Positions 1 through 5,601 of a DNA stretch of 5,601 nucleotides are shown here, one piece after another. This stretch comes from a virus. Taxonomy: Duplodnaviria; Heunggongvirae; Uroviricota; Caudoviricetes. The DNA lies in IMG/VR virus record IMGVR_UViG_2547132271_000007; one strand, 5' to 3'. The position numbers were made by a program, and so were the translations under genes. Under the pieces are notes generated by a model. The model had not been told where the DNA came from. It did no database searches and saw only the letters and a list, made by a program, of their open reading frames with translations. Position 1 is the stretch's first letter. The number at the start of each line of letters is the position of its first letter.

Positions 1-27
1 CATATCAGGAACTTGTTCGCACCTTCC

Positions 28-101
28 CTAGGAAATGATTTCCGATCTATTTAGGAAGTAACCTAGGAAGTGGTTTCCTACCTACTTAGGAAATGAGTTC
101 C
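28..101. repeat. Iteron-like array: three copies of a 16-bp imperfect palindrome YTAGGAARTGRTTTCC (28-43, 63-78, 86-101) plus a partial copy TTAGGAAGTAACC (51-63)
   Basis: Read directly. Copy 1 contains the perfect palindrome GGAAAT-G-ATTTCC; copies 2 and 3 differ at 2-3 positions. The window starts at position 1, so the array may continue upstream. Confidence 0.6.
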
Positions 102-104
102 ACC

Positions 105-168
105 AATACTATAATTAAATACTATAATTAAATAATATAAATAATATTCTTTATACTATATATATGAT
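105..168. repeat. AT-rich tract with a tandem 13-bp direct repeat ACTATAATTAAAT (108-120, 121-133); candidate DNA-unwinding element
   Basis: Read directly: almost pure A/T for about 60 bp immediately after the iteron-like array. Iterons next to an AT-rich tract is the classic origin architecture in plasmids and phages. Confidence 0.45.
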
Positions 169-1745: not shown

Positions 1746-2280
1746 ACAAAAATATGTAGTTGTTGAGCAATGGTTGAAGATGTTTAAAAAATGGTATTCA
1801 CCATCTGGTAATGAATACACCGCTACACTGCCAGCCGTTGAAATCTATAGTTATATAGCTGGATTCAATGAACAAGGGCAAGAATGTTACGCTACTCAAA
1901 AAACATTAGCTAATATTGGAATGGTTAGTGATCGTCAGGTTCGCAATATTATAAATATGTTTGTTGATATGGGAGTTCTTTCTGTAGAGGCACGGGACGG
2001 TCAAACATCACTCTATAAAGCATTACCATTTACAGATGCACATATTACTCCCCCAGGAGAATCATCACTCTCTGATCTTTCTGAGGCAGAAGAAGCACAG
2101 GAACAACCTAAAGGCAATAAACAGCCTTCTTTTGATGTTCTTGATGATTGGGATGCGCCTTTGCCGTGGGAGACGGAAGAAACACCTGTTTCATCAAGTG
2201 AAAAGCTACCAAATGGTATTGAGGCATATTTTTCTAAGAATTACCCAAATGTGTATGATGACTTTGATATTCCATTTTAA
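1681..2280 (+). CDS. Winged-helix-like DNA-binding protein with an acidic C-terminal tail, 199 aa; possible replication initiator or replisome organiser
   Basis: AAGGAGG at 1668-1674, 6 nt before the ATG. Segment ATQKTLANIGMVSDRQVRNIINMFVDMGVLSV looks like a winged helix-turn-helix; the tail DDWDAPLPWETEE is acidic. The functional call is inference from this motif and the nearby iteron-like array. Confidence 0.7.
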   Translation: MIKNIKTIAEAKAKCLNQKDGKQKYVVVEQWLKMFKKWYSPSGNEYTATLPAVEIYSYIAGFNEQGQECYATQKTLANIGMVSDRQVRNIINMFVDMGVLSVEARDGQTSLYKALPFTDAHITPPGESSLSDLSEAEEAQEQPKGNKQPSFDVLDDWDAPLPWETEETPVSSSEKLPNGIEAYFSKNYPNVYDDFDIPF

Positions 2281-2611: not shown

Positions 2612-2731
2612 ATGATAGTAGCTATGTATTGGTTATTGTTCTTTCTCACGTTAGAAACATATTTCGGGGTGTTTTCCTTTAAAAGAAAAGGAAAATTAAA
2701 TAATGGCAAAAAGAAAAAACAACGTTGTTAA
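2612..2731 (+). CDS. Possible 39-aa hydrophobic peptide (MIVAMYWLLFFLTLETYFGVFSFKRKGKLNNGKKKKQRC); speculative
   Basis: Below the threshold of the ORF track; I translated it by hand. AAAAGG lies about 11 nt upstream. One predicted membrane-spanning segment followed by a basic tail. Overlaps the start of the 2703 ORF in another frame. Confidence 0.2.
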   Translation: MIVAMYWLLFFLTLETYFGVFSFKRKGKLNNGKKKKQRC

Positions 2732-3113
2732 GAAAATCGGGGATTCAGCTTCTCTTCTAAGTAAACCTAAATCTATTCTAAGACGTAAAGACTTTAAAGA
2801 GCTAGTTACGCTCACCAAGCAAAATAGCGCCCCTGGCGAATGGAAAACAGAGATCATAGAACATTCTCCCTCTGTGCCTTGTGGAGATGAATTTAACGCC
2901 TTACAAGAAATCTTATCTTCAACACCTGGCGTGTTCTGGAAACCTAAAAAAAGAAAAGAGTATATCGTTGACAGCTCTGATTTACGCAAATACCAGATTT
3001 TAGGATTTGAAGATTATAATCACTACGTCGGTTATCTCGCCACAAATGGCCTAAATAATTTAGTTCCTGAATTCCAAATTTTAGATAATGCAGATCACTA
3101 TGGAGACTTTTAA
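2703..3113 (+). CDS. Hypothetical protein with a basic N-terminus, 136 aa
   Basis: Weak AAAGGA about 10 nt upstream. Its stop lies 1 nt before the next start codon, which suggests translational coupling. No family recognised. Confidence 0.55.
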   Translation: MAKRKNNVVKKIGDSASLLSKPKSILRRKDFKELVTLTKQNSAPGEWKTEIIEHSPSVPCGDEFNALQEILSSTPGVFWKPKKRKEYIVDSSDLRKYQILGFEDYNHYVGYLATNGLNNLVPEFQILDNADHYGDF

Positions 3114-3114
3114 T

Positions 3115-3453
3115 ATGAACAAAAACACGTATGACACAATTTACTCACTAATTAATTATTATGAGGATGATTACCTCCTGCCTTTAAACCGCGCTGAACT
3201 TGAAGCATACAAAGAAAACACGCCAGCGGCACTAAATGAGGCGTTTAAACACTGGGATTTAGCTGTGAATGCCTTTGAGCACCTCTCTAAGCGTGTAGAG
3301 ATGCTCTGTAAGCGTGAGAACGCATATCTAACAGCGGATCAGCTATGGGAGCTATCAAACTGGATAGAAGGTATTGCATCGGACGTTCGCTATGTAGGAG
3401 ATGGACTTGTTGAACTAGCTCAACGCTTAGGCGCTACTATCACAGAAGAATAA
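3115..3453 (+). CDS. Hypothetical acidic protein, 112 aa
   Basis: GGAGA at 3101-3105, 9 nt before the ATG at 3115. The ORF track starts this frame at 3088, but that start overlaps the upstream gene and has no ribosome-binding site. Last gene before the second promoter. Confidence 0.6.
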   Translation: MNKNTYDTIYSLINYYEDDYLLPLNRAELEAYKENTPAALNEAFKHWDLAVNAFEHLSKRVEMLCKRENAYLTADQLWELSNWIEGIASDVRYVGDGLVELAQRLGATITEE

Positions 3454-3482: not shown

Positions 3483-3511
3483 TTGACATTTCATATATTG
3501 TATGTTAATAT
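3483..3511 (+). promoter_or_regulatory. Strong sigma-70/SigA-type promoter: TTGACA (3483-3488), 17-bp spacer, TG-extended -10 TAATAT (3506-3511)
   Basis: Perfect -35, canonical spacing, TGT immediately upstream of the -10. Faces the downstream capsid-like genes. Confidence 0.65.
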
Positions 3512-3641
3512 AATTATATAGGGGTGATTATTTTTCCTTTATTGGTTCGATATTAAAAATTCTTCCTGTCATTAAAGGGGAGTAAAATCTCCGCTCCCCG
3601 CTTCTCCTCCTTAAGTAAATACTGTGCCATTATACCTCTTT

Positions 3642-3671
3642 GTTATGCATACATCTTGGAGTATGCATAAC
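3642..3671. promoter_or_regulatory. Inverted repeat GTTATGCATA-N10-TATGCATAAC in the leader; each arm contains the palindrome TATGCATA
   Basis: 10-bp arms are exact reverse complements. A related GTTATGCAAC occurs at 3737-3746. Could be an operator or an RNA hairpin. Confidence 0.5.
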
Positions 3672-3700
3672 ATAGGGTAATTACATAGGTATGAGTTAAT

Positions 3701-3732
3701 AAAAGGCGGCTTTAAATGCTGCCTTTTATTTT
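3701..3732 (+). terminator. Intrinsic terminator-like hairpin inside the leader: stem GGCGGC(3705-3710)/GCTGCC(3718-3723) with one G-U pair, 7-nt loop, U-tract 3724-3732
   Basis: An A-tract (3701-3704) upstream can extend the stem. Lies about 190 nt downstream of the predicted start site and about 60 nt upstream of the first downstream gene. Confidence 0.5.
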
Positions 3733-3741
3733 GCCCGTTAT

Positions 3742-3794: not shown

Positions 3795-4007
3795 ATGTTG
3801 TTCTTAAATGATAAAGAGCAAATCATCAAGTATAAAGATGAAATGCTGAAAATTAATCCACAAATTACCGAAATGGTAGCTAAATACGCTGGGTGTTCTG
3901 TAGAGGAAGTAGAAAGATGTGTTGAAAAATATTTTTCTCCTTCTTCTCCGTCTACACCTTCCCTTAATGAATTAATCAAATTAAAAGCTAAGGAGATTAC
4001 TAAATGA
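3795..4007 (+). CDS. Hypothetical small protein, 70 aa
   Basis: Weak AAGG about 9 nt upstream. Its stop overlaps the next start codon (ATGA, 4004-4007), which suggests translational coupling. An alternative in-frame start is at 3843. Confidence 0.5.
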   Translation: MLFLNDKEQIIKYKDEMLKINPQITEMVAKYAGCSVEEVERCVEKYFSPSSPSTPSLNELIKLKAKEITK

Positions 4008-4366
4008 TTATTGATTTAGACACTCTGTTTCCAGTTCGAAAGACTTTCACAGATATTGTAAGTTATTGTACTGATCCGTTTGCCTCTGTAGAAAGCAAGG
4101 TTTTTGCTTCTCTTCCTGCTGATGTTGAGTGCGGAGACTTGATCACCAGCACGGGCGCTAAATATGAATCAGGAGATGATATTTATGTTGTTATGAGTGA
4201 ATTTGTAACGGCTGGAGAAAACAAGCCTGTAGATGTGCTACGTAGCAATGCTGGCCTTGTATGCATCAAAGCTGATGCCCTGAATGCTGTAAGTGAAGCA
4301 GCAAAAACAGCATTAATTAAAAAAGGCTTCCAGCTTGAAGGCTTTAATACGGTTTTCACTTCTTAA
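4004..4366 (+). CDS. Hypothetical protein, 120 aa; possible head decoration protein (lambda gpD-like) by position only
   Basis: AAGGAG at 3990-3995, 8 nt before the ATG. It sits directly upstream of the capsid-like gene and is about the size of lambda gpD (110 aa). I see no convincing sequence similarity from memory. Confidence 0.65.
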   Translation: MIIDLDTLFPVRKTFTDIVSYCTDPFASVESKVFASLPADVECGDLITSTGAKYESGDDIYVVMSEFVTAGENKPVDVLRSNAGLVCIKADALNAVSEAAKTALIKKGFQLEGFNTVFTS

Positions 4367-4384
4367 TAAAAGGAATAATAATAA

Positions 4385-5413
4385 ATGATTCTAGGTAATG
4401 ATTACGTTGATTTAGCTCCTCTGTTCCAGGCACACAGCACTAGAAACTATCTGCTCTCTACCCTTGATTTTACGGATTCTGTAGGGGTTACATCTCATAA
4501 AGTAGCTGTTTCCCAGCTTGTCGAAAGCAACGAATCTCTCTTTAACAAAGAGACAAGCCGTTTCTCTTCTGAACACAACGTTACTAAGCGAGAACAAGGT
4601 AAAGAATGGCTGATCGAAATCCCGTATTTTCTTCGTGAGGATGTGATCCGTCCCTCTGATGTTCAAGGCAAGCGTAAGCCTGGCACTGATTTTCAGGAAA
4701 CACTCACTGATATCTATGCTGACTATGTTGCTAAACACCACGTAGCGTATCAGCGTACAAAAGAGAGCGTATTGGCTGCTTCTTTGTTCTCTGGCAAAAC
4801 TTACACGCCTAAAACTGATGATGTTCTTATCGAGTGGAGCAAGCTGTTTAACGTGGTACCTATGAAAACCACTGTGAACGCTTCCAGCACTGACACCACG
4901 AAGATTTTTAAAGAATTTGATCAGATTGCTACTGACATTATCGAGAAAGCACAAAGCCAGGCGGCTGCTGTAGAGCGTATTGTTGTTTTCTGTAAACCTG
5001 AAGCCTTCTCTGCAATTCGATTCTCTGCGGGTATGGCAAACGCATTCCAGTATGTAAGCCCACTGGAAGAAGGGAACGTTGTGTATCAGCGTCGTGACCT
5101 GCTGCCAGGGGTGACAGCGTTCACTATTCCAGGAACTAACATCGATGTTGTTAAACTGGTAGATCCGCTACACCTTGCACATATGACCGCAGACGCTGTA
5201 GCTGTTCCGAAGTTTGCTAAAGGCTCTAATGTATATCAGAACATCTACGGGGCTGCTTCCAGCACCTTTGAACTGATTAATGCCGCTCCTGCTGAAGTGT
5301 ATAGCTATAGCTATGAATCTTCTCGTGGTGATGCTGTTAACGTGGTTACAGAGAATAGCCAGATGGTTGTAAACCACGGTGTAGGCTTCTCCGTTCAAAT
5401 CACTGTTAAATAA
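4385..5413 (+). CDS. Probable major capsid protein, 342 aa, lambda gpE-like family (tentative)
   Basis: Longest ORF in the window, rich in V/A/S/T, followed by a strong terminator. Against my recalled lambda gpE sequence (341 aa) there are three colinear local matches: SLFSGKTYTPKTDD vs AVLKGKYTMTGE; IVVFCKPEAFSAIRFS vs IIVFDPKGWALFRSF; LLPGVTAFTIPG vs FLPDNTMVLGN. Family assignment is unverified. Confidence 0.8.
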   Translation: MILGNDYVDLAPLFQAHSTRNYLLSTLDFTDSVGVTSHKVAVSQLVESNESLFNKETSRFSSEHNVTKREQGKEWLIEIPYFLREDVIRPSDVQGKRKPGTDFQETLTDIYADYVAKHHVAYQRTKESVLAASLFSGKTYTPKTDDVLIEWSKLFNVVPMKTTVNASSTDTTKIFKEFDQIATDIIEKAQSQAAAVERIVVFCKPEAFSAIRFSAGMANAFQYVSPLEEGNVVYQRRDLLPGVTAFTIPGTNIDVVKLVDPLHLAHMTADAVAVPKFAKGSNVYQNIYGAASSTFELINAAPAEVYSYSYESSRGDAVNVVTENSQMVVNHGVGFSVQITVK

Positions 5414-5431
5414 TATTTTAACGTGTAATAG

Positions 5432-5477
5432 AGGCGTGGCGTGAATAACACGCTTCGCCTTTTTTTATTTATTTTTT
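5432..5477 (+). terminator. Strong Rho-independent terminator: 12-bp stem AGGCGTGGCGTG/CACGCTTCGCCT (one mismatch, one G-U), loop AATAA, U-tract TTTTTTATTTATTTTTT
   Basis: Read directly; begins 19 nt after the capsid-like stop codon. Confidence 0.8.
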
Positions 5478-5500: not shown

Positions 5501-5601
5501 ATGGAAGTGATTTTGAAATCAAAAAATGGTGTACACGTTCATTTAGATGCTAATGATTCTAGAGGCTTGTTAAATCTGAAATATCTATGTTCTCTCTTGG
5601 A
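5501..5601 (+). CDS. 5-prime end of a gene running off the window (MEVILKSKNGVHVHLDANDSRGLLNLKYLCSLL...), function unknown
   Basis: GAGGTG at 5487-5492, 8 nt before the ATG at 5501. Open frame to the window edge. Not in the ORF track because it has no stop. Confidence 0.45.
   Translation, partial: MEVILKSKNGVHVHLDANDSRGLLNLKYLCSLL

Follow-up and report, generated by a model that had tools for sequence, protein, structure and literature searches.

Several families of phage satellites have been described, and a commentary from late 2025 lists among them P4, the phage-inducible chromosomal islands (PICIs), the capsid-forming PICIs (cf-PICIs), the PICI-like elements (PLEs), and the new I55 elements of jumbo phages (PMC12772148). 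Here, we compare these systems with a 5,601-nt stretch of DNA from a Caudoviricetes record (IMG/VR IMGVR_UViG_2547132271_000007; the whole stretch is hereafter called the window), which contains, between positions 3795 and 5477, a self-contained transcription unit for a phage-type capsid, and which lies in a ~12.25-kb chromosomal island bounded by tRNA-derived attachment (att) repeats. This island is probably an integrative satellite of virulent phages of the Stephanstirmvirinae, namely phi92-like Justusliebigvirus and phAPEC8-like Phapecoctavirus, by which we infer that it is mobilised. More tentatively, we propose that it represents an undescribed family of Enterobacterales satellites that would practise a “shell-swap” on Stephanstirmvirinae, virulent phages of relevance to therapy, and would be packaged by mimicking a boundary sequence of the helper genome, the helpers possibly answering with nucleases resembling the anti-PLE nuclease Odn and with a captured regulator. 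We found no satellites of phi92, Justusliebigvirus, Phapecoctavirus, Stephanstirmvirinae, or rV5, nor this gene set, in open-access papers and bioRxiv, although a description elsewhere is possible.

By analogy, the island would work most like the PLE–ICP1 system and, if our reading is true, would be the E. coli counterpart of that arms race. Both systems pair a large virulent myophage with a small integrative island living at its expense (presumably so in our case), the helper capsids fall in the same structural group, with the ICP1 coat among the top fold matches of the island capsid, and replication modules are swapped among the satellites. They also share a helper nuclease of the Odn design, in which an origin-binding domain of the satellite is combined with a T5orf172/GIY-YIG-type nuclease. 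PLE is described as devoid of a capsid gene and as using an external scaffold, TcaP, to reshape the ICP1 coat into small capsids (PMC10002752). The island, unlike PLE, encodes its own capsid protein, putative mini-scaffold, decoration-like protein, tape measure, and tube initiator. As its shell would thus be self-made and not a remodelled helper shell, it is unlikely to be a PLE, and the descriptions of the two also set them apart in host order, size (~18 kb for PLE versus 12.25 kb), and gene set.

The comparison with other satellites is equally instructive. P4, with a genome of ~11.6 kb, builds on the capsid protein of P2, to which it adds Sid, an external scaffold, and Psu, a decoration protein. 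The island resembles it in size, tRNA integration, the possession of a copy of a helper packaging site, and a small-capsid strategy (presumed for the island), but P4 has neither capsid nor tail genes and depends on a temperate helper, whereas the island has genes of both kinds and its helper appears to be virulent. A P4-like identity was rejected because no island protein had a Pfam or PHROG match to Psu, Delta, Sid, AlpA, or the alpha-primase. Classical PICIs have int, an alpA/stl regulator, pri-rep, terS, and genes for capsid redirection, and they rely on the capsid protein of the helper; such an identity was likewise rejected given the lack of matches to terS, primase, and AlpA and the presence of the island’s own capsid protein. 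In the S. aureus pathogenicity islands, CpmB is a small internal scaffold that shares the C-terminal capsid-binding motif of the helper scaffold. The 70-aa protein of the island is similar in size and also ends in the terminal motif of a helper-type scaffold; however, CpmB redirects the capsid of the helper, whereas the putative mini-scaffold shares a transcription unit with a satellite-encoded capsid gene, the product of which it may bind. The cf-PICIs (e.g., EcCIEDL933) have in common with the island an HK97-fold capsid protein of their own, an integrase, and a wide presence in Enterobacteriaceae. They encode portal, protease, adaptor, connector, terL/terS, and HNH proteins, take only tails from temperate helpers, and exclude tail genes (PMC10085698). 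The island has shell genes only and must take portal, protease, terminase, and neck from its helper; with these core components absent and homologues of tape-measure and Dit_like genes present, membership in the cf-PICIs was rejected. So was membership in the PICMIs, minimalist chromosomal islands that phages induce, since we find five structural-type genes and their description presents PICMIs as minimal and without capsid-remodelling or structural genes (PMC10803314).

The capsid unit and its phi92-type counterparts

The capsid unit and its immediate surroundings comprise the following features (window positions):

3483-3511, + strand: sigma70-like promoter ahead of the capsid unit (TTGACA-17-TAATAT, extended -10 TG)
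3517-3733, + strand: structured leader with three stem-loops, with a terminator-like hairpin and T-run at its end
3795-4007, + strand: 70-aa open reading frame (ORF), first gene of the capsid unit
4004-4366, + strand: 120-aa ORF, at the decoration-gene position of the capsid unit
4385-5413, + strand: 342-aa major capsid ORF, last gene of the capsid unit
5433-5466, + strand: intrinsic terminator closing the capsid unit (11-bp GC-rich stem, 5-nt loop, T7 run)
5501-5601, + strand: start of a ~76-aa gene, cut by the window end, that precedes a tape-measure-like gene

The 342-aa protein has an HK97-type fold and belongs to the Phage_cap_E family, which is that of lambda gpE. It matches the Pfam profile PF03864 (E = 2.3e-15, 56.9 bits for a cut-off of 22.9) over positions 9-329 of 329, as well as the major head protein family PHROG 29 (phrog_29). 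An AlphaFold2 model built from 22 homologues, with a predicted local distance difference test (pLDDT) of 77.5 and a predicted template modelling score (pTM) of 0.78, retrieved HK97-fold capsids with Foldseek (E-values down to 1e-17), headed by those of PhiTE, Bas63, and Sf14, all three lytic myophages, and by the coat protein of ICP1, with YSD1, Chi, and lambda next in line. The match over the full Pfam profile confirms the gpE-like assignment that an initial annotation of the window had made provisionally. Its choice of lambda as frame of reference, on the other hand, has to be abandoned, as it is to phi92, a lytic myophage, that the island capsid comes closest: the best match of the capsid-family profile among all PDB sequences is Phi92_gp124 (E = 3.9e-19, full length), with a pairwise identity of 21% between the 342-aa protein and phi92 gp124.

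The relationship extends to gene order. In phi92, a Justusliebigvirus with a genome of 148.6 kb, the head genes encode, in this order, the portal (gp120), gp121, the scaffold (gp122, 371 aa), the decoration protein (gp123, 130 aa), and the capsid protein (gp124, 333 aa), after which there is a terminator; a later stretch encodes gp133 (75 aa), the tape measure gp134 (659 aa), and the Dit_like gp135 (236 aa). The island contains a 70-120-342 block and a 76-609-237 block that mirror these two sub-blocks in order and size, and in both genomes a terminator directly follows the capsid gene. The 609-aa protein belongs to the tape-measure family PHROG 16051 (phrog_16051; E = 2e-51) and matches phi92 gp134 with E = 2e-33, its N-terminal 66 residues being 55% identical. 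The 237-aa protein (Pfam Dit_like PF21821, E = 3e-29) is ~60% identical to the tail-tube initiator gp135. The 76-aa protein has no similarity to gp133, to which it corresponds by position only. Homology between the two systems ranges from 21% identity for the capsid to 60% for the initiator. There are clear differences too: a scaffold of 371 aa in phi92 has as its counterpart a protein of 70 aa in the island, the island tape measure is about 50 aa shorter, phi92 has portal and protease genes that the island lacks, and only in the island are the phi92-like blocks embedded in an integrative 12-kb element. We interpret the capsid unit as a miniaturised version of the phi92-type scaffold-decoration-capsid block, with high confidence for the capsid, moderate confidence for the mini-scaffold, and modest confidence for the decoration-like protein.

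Two details concern the phage records themselves. RefSeq annotates phi92 gp121 (L003 20193-20672) as a DNA methyltransferase, yet it matches the Pfam family Peptidase_S78_2 (XkdF-type prohead protease) with E = 2.5e-11; considering this match and the place of the gene between portal and scaffold, the RefSeq annotation is probably wrong. In addition, the records MG065639, MG065645, MG065656, MG065689, and MG065650 (~146-150 kb), labelled “Campylobacter phage” with C. jejuni as host, give matches equal in identity and score to those of the E. coli Justusliebigvirus and Phapecoctavirus genomes and are probably mislabelled or contaminant.

Residues 18-70 of the 70-aa protein align colinearly with residues 309-368 (of 371) of the phi92 scaffold gp122, and the 70-aa family shares with gp122 the terminal motif (D/E)LIxxKAxx(L/I)K, which is conserved across 47 scaffold homologues. 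The hhalign score of the family against the gp122 C-terminus is 24.1, whereas column shuffles had a mean of 12.7 (sd 2.3) and a maximum of 20.3, so that none of 300 reached it. These alignments give moderate support to the view that the 70-aa protein is a “mini-scaffold”, the counterpart of the C-terminal ~60 residues of the scaffold.

The 120-aa protein is more elusive. It had no Pfam or PHROG match at E ≤ 0.1, no sequence match in the PDB, and no tblastn match in 50,697 phage genomes. Sequence and profile searches did not place it in the lambda gpD family, with which the initial annotation had associated it; what they revealed instead is a remote link to decoration proteins of the phi92 type. 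A profile search of its family in 1.84 billion proteins recovered 21 representatives only, the most distant of which (P0214 and P0215) have E ~1e-4 to the family profile. These two match phrog_2680, annotated as head decoration, at E = 7e-4 and 1.7e-5, as does phi92 gp123 at 6.7e-39, while the window protein itself has no direct match to PHROG 2680. The hhalign comparison of the 120-aa family with gp123 is weak (P = 0.019) and colinear up to a shared C-terminal FTS. This remote and transitive link to the PHROG 2680/gp123 family modestly suggests a decoration-like protein.

The arrangement of the three genes between a promoter and leader of their own and a strong terminator, already recognised in the initial annotation, is confirmed. 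The ORFs are in the same orientation and tightly packed. The near-consensus promoter lies directly 3′ of the stop codon of the upstream operon (3453), and L004 and L005, two divergent islands, likewise have a sigma70-like promoter right where their upstream operon ends. Folding of the 280-nt leader gives a minimum free energy of -67.7 kcal/mol (z = -4.3), and none of 200 shuffled sequences folds as well. At its end, ~60 nt before the first ORF, a terminal hairpin with a T-run (3701-3733) had been overlooked in the initial annotation; it may be an attenuator, serve as a target of antitermination, or mark where a small RNA ends. Such a hairpin with a T-run precedes the first gene of the capsid unit in every island variant; alignment shows that the leader sequence is poorly conserved across island classes, which have only the hairpin positions in common. 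The terminator directly follows the capsid stop codon and recurs at the same post-capsid position in every divergent variant, with differing sequences. In all 14 other E. coli copies examined the three ORFs are intact and promoter, leader hairpin, and terminator are preserved, with ≤4 edits in these signals. The retention of signals and ORFs across variants indicates that the self-contained transcription unit is a conserved architecture and not a chance arrangement.

The capsid-unit genes are under purifying selection, as judged from the ratio of nonsynonymous to synonymous substitution rates between variants (0.09-0.13 for the capsid gene; 0.1-0.23 for the 120-aa gene, with one close pair at 0.34; 0.16-0.48 for the 70-aa gene). 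An Rfam scan of the window detected no RNA family, even at E ≤ 1, and no helper-specific late-promoter motif was found. The structural operons of phi92 have near-consensus sigma70 promoters and terminators between modules, and the same applies to the island.

Island ends, distribution and copies of a presumed helper's terminal-repeat boundary

The att sites of the island are direct repeats of 22-25 nt that correspond to the 3′ end of a tRNA gene, and a tyrosine integrase is encoded between them. In E. coli APEC O1 (L002), the 3′ end of tRNA-Thr recurs as a 25-nt repeat at a distance of 12,245 bp. In strain U1, the island is located at tRNA-Gly and its att repeats are 12,256 bp apart. AH50 and U1 (L004 and L005) represent a class with ~70% DNA identity that uses the tRNA-Gly site and a different integrase and has the same gene order. 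That the att spacing is nearly the same despite ~70% DNA identity and different integrases argues for a self-contained element.

The interval bounded by the att sites is devoid of genes for portal, protease, terminase, neck, sheath, tube, baseplate, and lysis. The initial annotation had noted the lack of adjacent portal, protease, and terminase genes, and in complete genomes this holds for the entire interval between the att sites. It had offered two explanations. One of them, a rearranged head module with the missing genes downstream of position 5501, is refuted by complete genomes such as that of APEC O1, where the capsid terminator is followed only by the 76-aa, 609-aa, and 237-aa genes and the tyrosine integrase gene, and then by attR. 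The other, a satellite-type or domesticated element carrying only capsid-shell genes, is supported by several independent lines of our results as to the satellite but not as to “only”, in view of the tape-measure-like and Dit-like genes. Inspection of the flanks, as it had advised, yielded the integrase and the tail homologues and no canonical portal-protease-scaffold block.

The window is matched in part by 1,082 of 5,426 complete E. coli genomes, and the capsid unit is present in 397 of them (about 7%). It occurs in two classes, one comprising about 306 genomes with 90-99% identity to the window (93-97% in most listed copies) and the other 89 genomes at roughly 70% identity. Citrobacter-like and Klebsiella-like metagenomic loci (L018, L020, L026, L027) have the same architecture, and so do K. 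pneumoniae (L032, L033) and Serratia (L031), the capsid protein of the latter being 37% identical. The capsid unit occurs across Enterobacterales.

A further link to particular phages was found in the left arm of the island, which is non-coding, at a distance of about 1.0-1.5 kb from the left end of the window. Candidate packaging sites were located there in the following islands:

L002 (APEC O1), 13982-14021
L013 (window-like), 4142-4168
L018 (other genus), 980-1006
L005 (tRNA-Gly class), 5374-5456
L001 (strain 2013C-3342), 13462-13540

In ten independent islands, a 40-nt stretch is identical at 40 of 40 positions to positions 318-357 of phi92. The left direct terminal repeat of phi92 is annotated at 1-343 (343 bp), and the match straddles its inner boundary. 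Diverged copies in L013 and L018 keep TTAACG-N10-GCCCCCCGAT and, at fixed spacing, a downstream CCCC..AAATATCA block. The tRNA-Gly (glyU-type) islands, together with L001, the closest relative of the window, instead match phAPEC8-like phages (Phapecoctavirus) over ~83 nt, at 78-81% identity. The terminal repeat of WPEC4, which is related to the matched phages, measures 328 bp, and there the island match (273-357) also straddles the boundary, within the same motif, GCTT|AACG. In L002 and the tRNA-Gly islands, the boundary site is located ~1 kb from attL. The occurrence of phi92-type matches in some islands and of phAPEC8/WPEC4-type matches in others implies that two island classes mimic the genome-end sites of two sister genera. 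A copy of this boundary is what would be expected in a satellite that hijacks the terminase of its helper, and we consider it a candidate packaging signal.

Several additional observations concern the arms and surroundings of the island. In many islands, the packaging-site mimic adjoins a second, short recombinase-type gene (183-205 aa) on the minus strand near attL (L004 4211-4762, L005 5460-6011, L018 264-845, L031 3138-3689, L032 2968-3585). Its product has a precomputed match to the Pfam family Phage_integrase in the loci from metagenomes, Serratia, and Klebsiella; the E. coli loci have it annotated as “recombinase family protein”, and the gene is absent from the APEC O1 copy. The left arm of the K. 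pneumoniae island L032 carries a Dam-type methyltransferase gene (4394-5083) that looks like accessory cargo. At the thrW hotspot, the APEC O1 island has as neighbours (L002 25267-30820) the toxin island with the vat autotransporter and a second integrase remnant; in strain 2013C-3342, the island adjoins CP4-6-like genes. In other genomes, insertion sequences (IS5, IS3, or IS481) lie within the island, which suggests that some copies are being inactivated.

The putative upstream replicon and an Odn-like phage nuclease

Upstream of the capsid unit, the window contains a putative origin and an operon of small genes:

29-130: putative replication origin, with three iterons TAGGAArTGrkTTCC at 29-43, 64-78, and 87-101
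105-130: tandem AT-rich repeats AATACTATAATTA x2, after the iterons in the putative origin
1209-1237, + strand: sigma70-like promoter of the early/replication operon (TTGACA-17-AATAAT, 11/12, TG; by consensus match only)
1351-1533, + strand: 60-aa ORF that opens the regulatory/replication operon, its position conserved in all islands
1557-1745, + strand: 62-aa putative small regulator, with a weak match to a PHROG transcriptional-regulator family
1681-2280, + strand: 199-aa Rep-like initiator, with a winged-helix HTH_36 domain (Pfam) and matches to PHROG replication-initiator families
2292-2570, + strand: 92-aa ORF
2703-3113, + strand: 136-aa ORF
3088-3453, + strand: 121-aa ORF that closes the upstream operon

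As the initial annotation had stated, the 3.4 kb ahead of the capsid unit hold only small genes (60, 62, 199, 92, 136, and 121 aa). A PADLOC analysis of the small proteins of the island detected no match to defence systems. The iterons of the window are also present in L001, L002, and L013, and in L002, L006, and L008 a second set of iterons goes together with another type of Rep. The first ~40 nt of the window, which overlap the first iteron, match (over window positions 1-47) ~200 plasmids, mostly from Klebsiella, with 91-97% identity over 36-47 nt; an iteron or Rep-binding motif may be common to the element and a plasmid family. A near-perfect direct repeat of ~52 nt (397-448 and 520-572) lies in gene-free DNA that separates the putative origin from the first operon; its two copies are 123-124 nt apart and consist of exact 28- and 24-nt blocks with a one-base offset between copies.

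The phages muut, inny, Mt1B1_P17, and BI-EHEC have a gene that matches part of the Rep gene (window 1776-2036) with 96-97% DNA identity, whereas phi92 gave no match to this Rep segment. The muut protein gp094 (332 aa; L022 2130-3128) contains two tandem Rep-type HTH_36 domains followed by a C-terminal MUG113/T5orf172 domain that matches the endonuclease family phrog_681 (E = 2e-19). Of its two DNA-binding domains, the second shows 93% protein identity, and 97% DNA identity, to residues 33-122 of the island Rep. In ICP1, the nuclease Odn (Gp88) combines a domain similar to the PLE RepA_N (42% identical) with a T5orf172/GIY-YIG nuclease and cleaves the PLE origin (PMC8263062). Judging by its domain design, muut gp094 corresponds to a putative origin-directed nuclease of the Odn type (PMC8263062). 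At the same variable locus where muut carries gp094, phage PaulScherrer has a 61-aa gene (bas60_0101; L023 2515-2700) that is 98% identical to the 62-aa putative regulator of the island and may be a captured satellite regulator.

In otherwise similar islands, unrelated types take the place of the regulator/Rep cassette (window ~1553-2032; compare L002 16680-17209). Among these types are HTH Rep proteins of two kinds (A and B), one kind with DUF6945, and proteins of ~485-497 aa (L020 6118-7575; L031 6144-7637), with a faint DEAD-helicase match for that of L020. Iteron sets partly co-vary with the Rep type. Such module swapping is consistent with escape from origin-directed nucleases.

A proposed satellite cycle and its competing explanations

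Several of the features by which satellites are generally recognised are present in the island, which has its own integrase and att sites, lacks a full set of virion, packaging, and lysis genes, and contains, at the level of sequence, a candidate helper packaging signal. The cycle that we propose would begin with infection by the helper and excision of the island by its integrase at the att sites. Rep and the iterons (window 29-130) would then replicate the excised satellite, and transcription of the capsid unit would start at the unit's own promoter, with the leader terminator as a possible gate. The satellite capsid, mini-scaffold, and decoration-like proteins would form a small shell on helper portals; since 12.25 kb represents about 8% of the helper genome, scaling from PLE/ICP1 and P4/P2 would predict T ~3-4. 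The helper terminase would recognise the GCTT|AACG mimic and package unit-length satellite DNA, and helper tails would be attached, incorporating the tape measure and initiator of the satellite. Some helpers would counter-attack with the chimeric nuclease that bears the DNA-binding domain of the satellite Rep.

Several points weigh against this interpretation. We found no free or packaged copies, and the contigs of about unit length (11-13 kb; P0013, P0014, P0026, P0027) all have chromosomal flanks; similarly, judging by their identifiers, the IMG/VR matches seem to represent prophages called in the genomes of isolates. With only 21% identity between the island capsid and that of phi92, the fit with helper portal, protease, and neck is an assumption. 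Given the terminator-like nature of the leader hairpin (3701-3733), the 3483 promoter may not drive the capsid unit. The structure prediction suggested in the initial annotation, successful for the HK97 fold of the 342-aa protein, gave an unusable AlphaFold2 model for the 120-aa protein (24-sequence alignment, pLDDT 42). The proposed cycle does not account for the tape-measure and Dit-like genes of the satellite, the second of which some variants (L004, L018) lack. Some copies are decaying, as in strain 2013C-3342, where IS5 splits the tape-measure-like gene (L001 20789-23820).

The most serious rival, although unlikely, is an anti-phage island that is not, or no longer, mobile, and whose shell and tail proteins would act as dominant-negative decoys that poison the assembly of phi92-type phages and in this way shield the host population, with no packaging of the island. 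The absence of any direct sign of packaging speaks in its favour, as does the retention of structural homologues of the helper at intermediate divergence, including a tape measure with a helper-like N-terminus; moreover, a mini-scaffold with the C-terminal motif of the helper scaffold could compete for the capsid protein, and one study provides a precedent for mobile-element genes that interfere with tail assembly (PMC11364771). Nevertheless, decoys explain neither the mimic of the terminal-repeat boundary, with its difference between phi92-type and phAPEC8-type classes, nor the conserved unit length, the Rep/iteron replicon, and the spread across tRNA sites and genera, and the island has no match to known defence-system models. 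Interference and transfer are in any case compatible, as PLE does both. Much less probable is a decayed prophage remnant or a rearranged head operon whose missing head genes were lost or lie elsewhere. A capsid gene without its partners, the annotation of most genes as hypothetical by PGAP, and the IS insertions in some copies could be understood in this way, but the same compact gene set and length of ~12.25 kb recur in two E. coli classes that are only ~70% identical, the gene order recurs in other genera, and the ORFs are intact and under strong purifying selection. Furthermore, no portal, protease, or terminase gene exists anywhere between the att sites, and the relatives are strictly lytic, non-integrating phages of 145-150 kb.

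A variant of the cf-PICIs, which would make its own capsids and steal only tails, would account for the HK97-fold capsid protein, the integrase, and the similar size. We regard it as slightly more improbable still, because head-tail adaptor, connector, terL, portal, protease, and terS are all absent, homologues of tail genes, which are “forbidden components” in the cf-PICI model (PMC10085698), are present, and the affinities of the island are with a virulent and not a temperate phage. The least probable explanation is an encapsulin-like or other cellular nanocompartment derived from a domesticated HK97-fold protein: encapsulins do appear among the weaker structural matches, but the best matches in both sequence and structure are phage capsids, with phi92 gp124 at the top, and the gene is surrounded, inside an integrative element, by scaffold-, decoration-, tape-measure-, and Dit-like neighbours and by no cargo enzyme.

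If the island is indeed a satellite of Stephanstirmvirinae, it would place a satellite of virulent phages in E. coli and other Enterobacterales, alongside PLE–ICP1 and the marine PICMIs, in a host that is genetically far easier to manipulate. It would also reveal an undescribed division of labour, in which the satellite contributes its own shell and tape measure and borrows portal, terminase, and tail, and it would allow tests of what determines capsid size and of how a foreign capsid protein starts to assemble at a helper portal. Pathogenic E. coli and Klebsiella frequently yield phi92-like and phAPEC8-like isolates, and the island could interfere with such phages or be spread by them, with consequences for host range, the design of phage cocktails, and gene flow. 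Finally, the Odn-like nuclease suggests that the capture of a parasite’s DNA-binding domain is a recurrent form of phage counter-defence.

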